A stretch of 1,541 nt of DNA from Escherichia coli. Lineage in GTDB: Bacteria > Pseudomonadota > Gammaproteobacteria > Enterobacterales > Enterobacteriaceae. Where the stretch lies: assembly GCF_965641715.1 (NCBI RefSeq), contig NZ_OZ282461.1; one strand, 5' to 3'. Below, in pieces: positions 1 to 1,541 of this stretch; the first letter of the stretch is position 1, and each line of letters begins with the position of its first letter. Made by a program: the position numbers and the translations under genes. The notes beneath the pieces were generated by a model that was not told the origin of the DNA, did no database searches, and saw nothing but the letters and a program-made list of their open reading frames with translations.

Positions 1-37
1 GTGCTCAATGTGGCTTCCGGTTCTCTTCCGCTTCCTC

Positions 38-80
38 GTCGATTCGCTCGCTACGCTCGGTCATCGACTTGCGGCGAGCG
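38..80. other. Hairpin-rich segment resembling what I recall as the primosome-assembly-site (single-strand initiation) region downstream of the pMB1/ColE1 origin
   Basis: Seen in sequence: cttccgcttcctcg (26-39) and ...cgctcgctacgctcggtcatcgacttgcggcgagcgg... parallel pBR322 cttccgcttcctcgctcactgactcgctgcgctcggtcgttcggctgcggcgagcgg (recalled). Dyads gtcgat (38-43) with atcgac (63-68), and cgctcgc (45-51) with gcgagcg (74-80), are preserved despite substitutions. Function is inference. Confidence 0.4.
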
Positions 81-386
81 GTGTCACCTCTCGCATGTTG
101 TCGGTGATCCCGTTGTTGTTCTTTCGGGGATGAGTCGTCAGATAGCCCTTCAAACACGCTCAGAAGCTCTCAGACGCACGAAACGGGTTTTAGATGCCCG
201 TCAGGGCATGGAAGGCGCGAAAAACGCTTACAGAGGCTCTCAGGAGGTCAGGCGCGCCGATACCCCTAACCAGGGGCTTTCAGGTCGCCAGGAACCGCGC
301 CAGCCCCCTGCAAAGCCCATTTGCACGGTACAGGCAGCCACTCGGTTGGTAGGTGGTCGTAGACCGTCGGTGTTACAGCGATGGGG

Positions 387-576: not shown

Positions 577-1056
577 TCAATTTGAAAACATGGCCATGAT
601 TCGGCGCTGAATATCACCGTCTTTGTTGACCAGTGTTTTAGTGACAAACGCCGCGTAGTTTTTAGATGTGTTGTATCCCTTCCAGACTTCATGTGGATCC
701 AGTGCATACGCACAAACCTTACCGGCAACAGGAATTCTGACTAACGCGTTTTTTGATTCTAAGTAGTTGAGCCAGCGCTTAATTGTGCTTCGGCTAACAC
801 CCAATTTATCTGCTAAAAACTGCTGATCGGCAACGACAGCACCGCATGAGGGATCTATGTGCTCAGCTAAAAACGAGTAAAGCGGTATTGCTACAACTCC
901 CTGCTTGTCCTTCGACAGTTCTCGGATCCTTTCCCAGCCCTTCTGATAAACCTGGGTGAATGGGCCGTTATTTTTCGGATCTGGTTCCGATTCTTTGTTT
1001 AATTTTTCCAGTTCTTTTAGACGCTTTTTTCGCTGCTCTTCAGTCCCGATATACAT
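577..1056 (-). CDS. Putative plasmid replication initiator or DNA-binding regulator with a helix-turn-helix motif (RepA-like, as in small cryptic enterobacterial plasmids); 159 aa
   Basis: Seen in sequence: ORF from the track, ATG at 1056-1054 and TGA stop at 579-577 on the minus strand. A GGAG Shine-Dalgarno (plus-strand ctcc, 1064-1067) lies 7 nt upstream of the ATG. The segment ...VADQQFLADKLGVSRSTIKRWLNYLESKNALVRI... (approx nt 736-834) has the pattern of a helix-turn-helix. The N-terminus is lysine/glutamate-rich. It is the only long ORF in the AT-richer block and is preceded by a repeat-rich region. Inference: Rep-like function from motif and context; a vague recollection of pKL1-type 1.5-kb plasmids with a small RepA is not verified. 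Confidence 0.75.
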   Translation of the reverse strand: MYIGTEEQRKKRLKELEKLNKESEPDPKNNGPFTQVYQKGWERIRELSKDKQGVVAIPLYSFLAEHIDPSCGAVVADQQFLADKLGVSRSTIKRWLNYLESKNALVRIPVAGKVCAYALDPHEVWKGYNTSKNYAAFVTKTLVNKDGDIQRRIMAMFSN

Positions 1057-1182: not shown

Positions 1183-1275
1183 CATAATGCAAGTAGCTAA
1201 AAAATCAATAACTTACAAAATCGCCCTTAAATATCTTTTCTGCTGAAAGTGTTGCGCGAAGCGGAACACTTTTTT

Positions 1276-1299
1276 GGGGTGTCGGGGCGAAGCCCTGAC
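1276..1299. repeat. Left arm of a 24-bp inverted repeat (ggggtgtcggggcgaagccctgac); the arm is also an internal hairpin
   Basis: Seen in sequence: the reverse complement of 1504-1527 is ggggtgtcggggtgaagccctgac, matching 23 of 24 positions. Within the arm, gtcggggc and gccctgac are themselves near-complementary. Confidence 0.7.
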
Positions 1300-1340
1300 A
1301 CAGTCACGTAGCGATAGCGGAGTGTATACTGGCTTATTCC
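1276..1340. other. ColE1/pMB1 bom-like origin of transfer (oriT) with putative nick motif CTGG/CTTA at 1329-1336
   Basis: Seen in sequence: ggggtgtcggggcgaagccctgacacagtcacgtagcgatagcggagtgtatactggctta closely resembles the pBR322/pMB1 bom segment gggtgtcggggcgcagccatgacccagtcacgtagcgatagcggagtgtatactggcttaac, recalled from memory. Established knowledge: the ColE1 relaxase MbeA nicks within CTGG/CTTA. The nicked strand was not determined here. Confidence 0.6.
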
Positions 1341-1457
1341 TCTGCAAGCCTTACCAGCCGTGATTTTTGCCAGATTTCGCGCTCTCCACGTTCAACAGCT
1401 CCATCATGTTTTTGCCGTCCGTTCACCGCTAAAACGCCTCAGAAATCGGGACAGGAT

Positions 1458-1500
1458 GTGGGAATGTCGGACCGCGCACGCGCACTCAGACATTCCCCAC
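1458..1500. other. Stem-loop: gtgggaatgtc (1458-1468) pairs with gacattccccac (1489-1500); the loop carries an alternating pyrimidine-purine tract cgcgcacgcgca (1473-1484)
   Basis: Seen in sequence: 7-bp perfect core gaatgtc/gacattc plus flanking G:C pairs with one bulge. No downstream T-run, so it is not a canonical intrinsic terminator. Confidence 0.4.
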
Positions 1501-1503
1501 CTA

Positions 1504-1527
1504 GTCAGGGCTTCACCCCGACACCCC
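1504..1527. repeat. Right arm of the 24-bp inverted repeat (gtcagggcttcaccccgacacccc)
   Basis: Seen in sequence: partner of 1276-1299 with one mismatch; the arms are separated by 204 bp. Confidence 0.7.
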
Positions 1528-1541
1528 GCATCCGTGCGTAA

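Follow-up and report, generated by a model that had tools for sequence, protein, structure and literature searches.

The window analysed here, a 1541-bp stretch of Escherichia coli DNA, is a complete cryptic plasmid of the pKL1 (Col(MG828)) family with repA as its sole gene, and we consider it probable, at roughly 0.8, that it is a hitchhiker plasmid of the pOriT type whose two orphan origins of transfer (oriTs) would each allow mobilisation in trans. The origins are convergent and relaxase-less and occupy a transfer block of ~250 bp (1276-1527) between near-identical 24-nt hairpins: in a repeat search, the hairpin element at 1276-1299 recurs inverted at 1504-1527 with 23 of 24 bases complementary. 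One origin is of the ColE1 type and the other belongs to the I-complex. The sequence-based part of this reading consists of homology, intact nick cores and absent mobilisation genes, and nicking and transfer are inferred from close homologues that have been tested. The pOriT class has been described with ColE1-like oriTs included (PMC10123127). As that class is delimited by Ares-Arroyo et al. 2023, the window combines a recognisable oriT with the absence of relaxase and mating-pair-formation genes.

Megablast searches of PLSDB and of complete E. coli genomes returned end-to-end matches at 94-97% identity to circular plasmids of 1545-1566 bp, to which the replicon type Col(MG828) is assigned. 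The end and the start of the window are contiguous in these circular records, so the 1.5-kb circle that the earlier note had raised as a possibility is real. The window displays the features of the pKL1/Col(MG828) family, namely a ~1.5-kb circle, a pKL1-type RepA and the common non-coding backbone. Its size and layout equal those of the other members, the non-coding backbone is 85-98% identical, and these plasmids carry ColE1-type and I-complex-type nick cores on opposite strands as the window does. The window differs from pKL1, the founding member of the family (NC_002145, 1549 bp), in having another RepA allele and other origin repeats. Relatives listed in PLSDB are already typed "mobilizable" by MOB-suite with no relaxase listed, and the MOB-typer rule for this category is 'relaxase or oriT, no MPF' (PMC12484619).

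The repA gene (577-1056, minus strand) encodes a pKL1-type winged-HTH replication initiator of 159 aa that shares 78% amino acid identity with pKL1 RepA (E 4e-94). It matches the Pfam domain HTH_36 and, weakly, RepL. A rep promoter-like site (1115-1087) and two 25-bp repeats or palindromes (TAGCTCACACATGCGTGAGCTAACC; 1132-1182) lie upstream of the gene, and the repeats are presumed to form the RepA-binding origin and operator. The pKL1 oriV carries analogous RepA-binding inverted repeats (PMC3832669), to which the 25-bp repeats of the window presumably correspond. Downstream of repA, a GC-rich conserved non-coding region (83-575) contains nearly invariant stem-loops (387-438) and a probable rep terminator hairpin (521-562). 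In relatives, insertions of 49-140 bp are tolerated within 446-520. This region is common to small RepL-type plasmids that lack the oriT block; the GC-rich part (~1-545) occurs in this way in RepL-type plasmids of 2.3-4.4 kb, which indicates that the hairpin-bounded oriT block is a separable unit.

Similarity between the window and ColE1 is confined by BLAST to the oriT and to a second short site. The latter (23-82, plus strand) resembles a primosome-assembly or single-strand-initiation sequence and is 84% identical to ColE1 1367-1308, which we take to be the ColE1 primosome-assembly site (pas), so that its function in the window is putative. Positions 26-238 are 80% identical to non-coding DNA located ~650 bp upstream of the rep gene of the IncX4 plasmid pCROD2. 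A ColE1-like RNA II origin was considered for the GC-rich region, which resembles pBR322 by eye, but the window has no Rfam RNAI match at E<=1 and is not a ColE1-type (RNA I/RNA II) replicon by this measure. A search for a cer/Xer multimer-resolution site was likewise negative, with no XerC/XerD core within 8 mismatches, a result worse than that for shuffled sequence.

Across the whole window, NCBIfam and profile searches gave no family match for any open reading frame (ORF) other than repA. A 164-aa ORF at 1-495 was considered as a hidden mobilisation gene and rejected: it matches no family, and 1-nt indels break it in 8 of 10 relatives. Some RefSeq relatives label this ORF 'rep protein' or 'hypothetical'. 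The earlier note had reported no mobilisation genes, which these searches bear out, and the relaxase (mbeA) and accessory genes that a mobilizable ColE1-like plasmid (pMOB) has of its own are absent from the window.

The first origin, oriT-1 (1276-1336, plus strand), is of the ColE1/MOB-HEN (MOBP5, MbeA) type and is 94% identical to the ColE1 oriT. In a pairwise alignment, window positions 1271-1336 match positions 1528-1462 of ColE1 (NC_001371) on the opposite strand with 94% identity over 67 bp (E 5e-19). The ColE1-type oriT that had been recognised from its likeness to the pMB1 bom region is therefore present, the comparison here being with ColE1 and not with pMB1/pBR322 itself. A wider 96-bp stretch (1255-1350) matches 4707 PLSDB plasmids, 4340 of which are typed mobilizable. 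The distal hairpin of oriT-1 (1281-1299, plus strand; GTCGGGGC-GAA-GCCCTGAC) is predicted to fold in single-stranded DNA (ssDNA). The predicted nick follows 33 nt further downstream, the conserved distance, and the hairpin aligns with ColE1 without a gap. The 15-nt nick core GTGTATACTGG|CTTA (1322-1336, plus strand) follows, with CTGG at 1329-1332 and CTTA at 1333-1336. By the published ColE1 nick mapping, we place the nick presumptively between G1332 and C1333 on the plus strand. As a general rule an oriT is cleaved 3' of its inverted repeat, both being read on the cleaved strand, which makes the mob genes of ColE1 the last to enter, and the ColE1 gene order fits both this rule and the published nick position.

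To examine the nick-proximal bases, we aligned oriT-1 with the oriTs of eight ColE1-like plasmids, ColE1 itself among them; they come from E. coli, Klebsiella, Enterobacter, Cronobacter, Shigella and Erwinia, and seven carry a MOBP relaxase by typing. The window retains each column in which these eight oriTs do not vary, and its nick core is the same as in all eight. The CTGG/CTTA motif named in the earlier note is accordingly intact, and the divergence near the nick that would have spoken against a functional site was looked for in this alignment and not found. The window departs from ColE1 at A1290 in the hairpin loop, at A1300 and in the bases from 1337 on, and these columns also vary among relaxase-bearing plasmids. 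The substitution A1300 is private to the window.

The second origin, oriT-2 (1441-1528, minus strand), is found on the other strand, 120 bp away from the nick of oriT-1, and is likewise devoid of a relaxase gene. It is of the I-complex type (R64/IncI1, IncB/O/K/Z; NikA/NikB). Read along the minus strand, it begins with the distal hairpin GGGGTGTCGGGGTGAAGCCCTGAC (1527-1504) followed by TAG, continues with a NikA-type 'repeat A' inverted repeat, GTGGGGAATGTC...GACATTCCCAC (1497-1460), and ends in the nick region CACATCCTG|TCCCG (1460-1447), which reads ATCCTG|TCCCGATTTCT and matches the I-complex type exactly over 1460-1448. The oriTs of R64 (IncI1) and of IncB/O/K/Z plasmids share the 8-bp-stem distal hairpin, repeat A and CACATCCTG|TCCC in equal order and spacing. 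By analogy with R64 and RP4, we take the nick to lie between 1452 and 1451 on the minus strand. For an R64-type oriT, PMC4743918 cites a requirement for 'nick region and repeat A'. In conjugative I-complex plasmids nikA-nikB come after the oriT, whereas the DNA beyond it in the window is non-coding.

Counterparts of oriT-2 lie beside relaxase genes or in plasmids of similar design. It is identical at 82 of 86 positions (95%) to a site in the IncK2/Z conjugative plasmid NZ_OQ534119 that lies 38 bp upstream of mobA (nikA-like) and relaxase (nikB-like) genes, and at 68 of 88 positions, in register, to the oriT of the IncI-gamma/K1 plasmid pESBL-283, 14 bp upstream of nikA-nikB. These IncK2/Z and IncI-gamma/K1 oriTs align in register with oriT-2 over its inverted repeat (1460-1497) and its hairpin (1504-1527). 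The 1983-bp plasmid NZ_AP027664, which fits pBuzz by description and may be that plasmid, carries two oriT copies; oriT-2 is identical to one at 84 of 88 positions and to the other at 79 of 83. An allele-specific 70-nt oriT-2 query matched 344 conjugative plasmids, mostly at ~97% identity, and most of them contain the 63-nt site at >=90% query coverage. Family members and I-complex plasmids show no variation in the nick region CACATCCTGTCCC or in the distal hairpin. We also observed two changes in the oriT-2 hairpin, T1515 and T1503, that are private to the window.

A relative of 2313 bp, NZ_CP080170, provided the explanation for the hairpin pair that bounds the transfer block. In this plasmid a homologous unit of hairpin and variable hairpin is positioned immediately 5' of a small gene with matches to NCBIfam MobA (NF041264) and to a NikA-like Pfam family, the product of which is 50% identical to IncI1 NikA; this identified the second member of the pair in the window as part of a second oriT. 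This assignment superseded a T-strand 'clamp', in which 1276-1299 and 1504-1527, predicted to pair in ssDNA, would have evolved to keep the two ends of the transferred strand joined, because the second arm is the distal hairpin of oriT-2. A CloDF13-type nick had also been considered at the foot of the hairpin (GGGTG/GTCGGG); the architecture is alike by eye, but the alignment was not significant. Judged by homology, window 1528-1441 (minus strand) is an orphan I-complex oriT with the IncB/O/K/Z allele.

The ~40-nt hairpin at 1460-1497 exists in at least three versions within the family that are ~55% alike, each folding at the same place, and by its position and sequence it is the putative NikA-binding 'repeat A'. 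The window and CP054464 share an IncK2/Z-type allele. An IncI-type allele, 88% identical to pESBL-283, is found in CP029109 and four others, and pKL1 itself carries the third. Two of the at least three alleles consequently match different I-complex groups, IncK2/Z and IncI-gamma/K1. The surrounding DNA has also been reassorted. The rep cassette and origin repeats of the window are 98-99% identical to the CP029109/CP182202 type, and positions 1460-1541 plus 1-100 are 96-100% identical to CP054464; on these similarities the window is a mosaic of two sequenced subtypes, with the rep cassette of one (CP029109/CP182202) and the repeat allele of the other (CP054464).

Several tested plasmids provide precedents for transfer from origins of these two types. 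ColE1 mob functions encoded on pGJ28 acted in trans, along with R64drd11, to mobilise the bom region of pBR322 (PMC10619795), and pST1030-3, which carries an orphan ColE-type oriT, was co-transferred in a three-plasmid system according to the account in PMC9282650, which cites Oliva et al. 2020. The 93-bp R64-type oriT of pEC156 is functional with R64 (PMC4743918). According to PMC9282650 and PMC11389934, pBuzz (Moran & Hall 2019) comprises 1982 bp and has two oriTs in inverse orientation but neither a relaxase nor an accessory gene, and a B/O plasmid mobilises it efficiently.

By analogy with these systems, a relaxosome supplied in trans would nick one strand of the window plasmid, at 1332|1333 or at 1452|1451, stay on the 5' end and be passed to a conjugative plasmid's coupling protein and pilus. 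Transfer of the strand would run 5'->3', with the distal hairpin entering last and acting in termination. From geometry, the segment between the convergent nick regions (1337-1446), which is 86-96% conserved in family members, would enter the recipient first whichever origin is used. The oriT-1 route would take two helpers, a ColE1-like plasmid providing MbeA/B/C and any compatible conjugative plasmid, whereas a single I-complex conjugative plasmid would suffice for the oriT-2 route. An IncB/O/K/Z-type helper would by itself provide the pilus, the coupling protein and both Nik proteins (NikA and NikB), so the route through two helpers is probably one of two, and perhaps not the main one. The plasmid would thus probably be mobilisable via oriT-2 by one IncB/O/K/Z-type plasmid, as well as via oriT-1. 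The earlier note had proposed a possible hitchhiker that would need both a ColE1-like Mob system in the same cell and a conjugative plasmid. The hitchhiker part stands, as this is a relaxase-less, oriT-only plasmid, but the second, I-complex origin on the other strand removes the supposed obligate need for two helpers.

We examined the co-residence of helper relaxases in 5426 complete E. coli genomes, using concatenated queries and deriving the counts by inclusion-exclusion. Of these genomes, 532 (9.8%) contain a 119-nt marker specific to the family (384-502) and 945 an MbeA-like relaxase domain; 1237 contain either and 240 contain both. The MbeA-like relaxase therefore occurs in 45% of carriers (240/532) compared with 14% of non-carriers (odds ratio 4.9). 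An unrelated MOBQ relaxase, used as a control, occurs in 187 carriers (35% versus 7.5%, odds ratio 6.7). As the control is enriched at least as much, we rejected a specific co-residence with MbeA: the signal reflects multi-plasmid strains and no specific dependency. A pattern of multiple small plasmids has already been reported for pOriTs (PMC10123127). The MbeA-like gene is absent from 55% of carrier genomes. For the NikB-type relaxase, the union with the family marker comprises 1964 genomes, which bounds the overlap between 0 and ~286 genomes.

These counts bear on the strongest alternative, namely that only one origin works, either oriT-2 with oriT-1 as a relic of recombination with ColE1-like plasmids or the reverse. 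We regard this as unlikely. That one helper would suffice for oriT-2, that this origin is nearly the same as the pBuzz type for which mobilisation has been demonstrated, that a two-helper route is intrinsically less likely to be at hand, and that the MbeA enrichment is non-specific all lean towards a silent oriT-1, yet there are known cases of mobilisation in trans from orphan ColE-type oriTs, and 45% of carrier genomes do hold an MbeA-like gene. Conservation within the family can be read both ways. Variable columns make up 10 of 61 in oriT-1 and 192 of 783 in the surrounding non-coding DNA (p = 0.16); oriT-1 is not significantly more conserved than its neighbours, and selection on it is inseparable from recent common ancestry. 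The 15-nt nick core, however, is invariant in all 11 family sequences and in the aligned relaxase-bearing plasmids, against a background of ~25% variable columns. One member (L009) has four substitutions between the oriT-1 hairpin and the nick core, which would be in keeping with a relic, but they fall in columns that are variable among relaxase-bearing plasmids too.

It is far less probable that neither origin is used and that the block is an inert leftover of recombination, the plasmid spreading vertically, by transformation or by transduction. Some hosts are indeed without a suitable helper: strain CE10 has a pKL1-like plasmid and neither a MOBP relaxase nor a conjugative plasmid, and ABU 83972, which we take to carry only this kind of plasmid, may be another helper-free host. 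Against this, all ten pKL1-family plasmids examined, pKL1 included, have both nick cores on opposite strands ~126 bp apart. No examined member has lost these ~250 bp of a 1.5-kb molecule or either intact nick core, in a set that spans three species or genera and at least three types of rep cassette. The NikA-repeat alleles moreover track different conjugative-plasmid groups while the hairpin structure is preserved, which is difficult to account for unless relaxosome recognition is under selection. The abundance of the family in complete E. coli genomes and its occurrence in Klebsiella, Shigella, Salmonella and Serratia also argue against an inert block. Scarcely credible is a block that serves replication, as a lagging-strand priming or termination signal to whose present role the oriT resemblance is incidental: it does adjoin the ColE1 pas-like site at 23-82 and GC-rich DNA of a kind found near IncX4 and RepL rep genes, and its ssDNA folds are significantly stable, but the two are separable in RepL-type plasmids, which hold the GC-rich part without the oriT block, the matches extend beyond the hairpins to cover nick cores and relaxosome-binding repeats precisely, and the homologous site in conjugative plasmids is an oriT upstream of nikA-nikB.

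With two usable origins as the preferred reading, the exchange of DNA around them can be considered. Non-coding DNA that starts at 1273, crosses the junction and ends at 578 shows 85-98% conservation in plasmids that between them carry at least three replication cassettes. The three are the pKL1 RepA type, the window's type and one encoding a 146-aa protein that is 25% identical to the window RepA; their origin repeats are mutually unrelated, and rep cassettes within the family diverge by up to 75% at the protein level. A tentative reading, which we rate as possible but rather doubtful, is that the block is an exchangeable cassette in which the NikA repeat is swapped by recombination to match the local I-complex group and the ColE1-type origin serves as a second ticket. 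If this were true, the repeat swap would track IncI, IncB/O/K/Z or a third type, and the pKL1 family would live as a minimal hyperparasite that follows its helpers, conjugative as well as mobilizable plasmids. What it conserves as a backbone would be non-coding DNA for transfer and priming, with the rep gene as the replaceable part.

Comparison with known systems places the window close to several of them. Like pBuzz and NZ_AP027664, it has no relaxase and no accessory gene, and its convergent oriTs sit within the same outward hairpins. NZ_AP027664 differs in having two I-complex-type oriTs and a ColpVC-typed replicon (pBuzz is a rolling-circle plasmid), whereas the window pairs one I-complex-type with one ColE1-type oriT on a RepA/theta-type replicon. 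The bom region of pBR322/pMB1, pST1030-3 and pSe-Kan share with the window a ColE1-family oriT without mob genes. Such orphan ColE-type oriT plasmids are mobilisable only with MbeA-type proteins in trans plus a conjugative plasmid, and these three have ColE1-type RNA II replicons, in contrast to the window with its lack of an RNA I/RNA II match. Plasmids of the pEC156 and pCERC7 types are small, carry an I-complex-type oriT and need a conjugative plasmid to supply the NikB relaxase. Like the window, pEC156 has two different oriTs, both functional in its case, but these are an F-type and R64-type pair on a ColE1 replicon, and pCERC7-type plasmids encode their own NikA whereas the window encodes no accessory protein.

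The element is no unrecognised curiosity, as it belongs to a known class (pOriT) and to a plasmid family sequenced since the 1990s. Hitchhiking on a relaxase supplied in trans, dual oriTs included, is already established, and the current view of conjugative mobilisation is unchanged. The heterotypic convergent origin pair, together with allele and cassette swapping, is a neat variation on the designs of pBuzz and pEC156, and it illustrates how little DNA would be needed to exploit two kinds of conjugation machinery, namely three hairpins and two nick sites without any protein. Its importance is modest, with the family's non-coding backbone carried on plasmids in ~10% of complete E. coli genomes. 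There are also consequences for plasmid typing. The Col(MG828) label seems to follow the common non-coding DNA and not the rep gene; of the initiators found under it, two are 25% identical to each other and have no significant similarity to a third, so that plasmids with distantly related initiators are lumped together. Mobility typing is inconsistent as well, with two family members (L008 and L020) typed 'non-mobilizable' despite having both nick cores intact.

Alignment of the window against its relatives divides it into segments with different closest matches. The rep cassette (577-1272) shares 98-99% identity with CP029109 and CP182202. The NikA-repeat allele (an allele of the "repeat A" inverted repeat in the I-complex oriT), taken together with the pas region (1460-1541 and 1-100), is 96-100% identical to CP054464, whereas the same DNA shows only 55-92% identity to CP029109. 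On the strength of these identities, we conclude that the plasmid is a recombinant. An inverted repeat located directly downstream of the repA stop codon (521-562) is likely the rep terminator. This repeat shares 85% identity with a site in the IncX4 plasmid pCROD2, and in CP029109 its place is taken by a different hairpin and a 21-bp insertion.

Matches to the non-coding DNA extend to plasmids of other types. The stretch at 26-238, made up of the pas-like sequence and the next 150 bp, shares 80% identity with non-coding DNA of the conjugative plasmid pCROD2 (2444-2645). There the match precedes the rep gene by ~650 bp and is present in three copies per record. In a 24-kb MOBC conjugative plasmid (L011, 45-239), DNA adjoining the RepA gene is 81% identical to positions 192-383 of the window. 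From its distribution, the pas-like sequence with its adjoining DNA looks like a promiscuous non-coding element associated with replication origins. Two strong stem-loops, GTCTGGGG/CCCCAGAC and GGTTTCCGG...CCGGAACC, stand side by side at 387-438, the second enclosing an inner GCGC hairpin. Both are near-invariant in the pKL1 family (4 of 66 columns variable), with single-stranded DNA fold z-scores of -4.1 and -5.3. One relative carries a 140-bp insertion directly after them.

The Col(MG828) label is given to plasmids whose rep genes are distantly related or dissimilar, as seen in the window and the comparison plasmids L008 (NZ_CP079154), L019, L020 (NZ_CP147104), and L021. These rep genes encode the pKL1 RepA type, a 146-aa HTH protein with 25% identity to that type, or a RepL protein with no significant similarity to the others. 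The sole DNA common to all of these plasmids is a non-coding GC-rich region (1-453 in the window), and so the replicon marker seems to sit in non-coding DNA rather than in a rep gene.

A GC-rich, 164-aa open reading frame with a GTG start occupies positions 1-495 of the plus strand, with a counterpart at 1-585 in the comparison plasmid L009. Some RefSeq relatives annotate it as either "rep protein" or "hypothetical protein". In the window, an in-frame TAA (1539-1541) separates it from an upstream extension present in relatives. This frame is probably a spurious gene call, since 1-nt indels break it in eight of ten relatives and no family match was found for it.

MOB-suite typing in PLSDB lists both L008 and L020 as "non-mobilizable". 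Each has its ColE1-type nick core intact and also carries the I-complex nick region, the same pair that is found in relatives typed as "mobilizable". Both elements also occur in pCE10C (NC_017649), a 4.2-kb ColE1-type plasmid with a restriction-modification system and no relaxase. The strain harboring pCE10C also holds a pKL1-like plasmid, and it contains neither a conjugative plasmid nor a MOBP relaxase.

A BLAST comparison of the window hairpin with the hairpin at the CloDF13 nick motif returned no significant similarity. The reported CloDF13 motif, GGGTG/GTCGGG (L025, about 9752), marks the 5' foot of its hairpin, and by eye only this hairpin resembles GGGTGTCGGGGCGAAGCCCTGAC of the window, where both hairpin copies (1276-1287 and 1516-1527) carry a version of the motif one base shorter.
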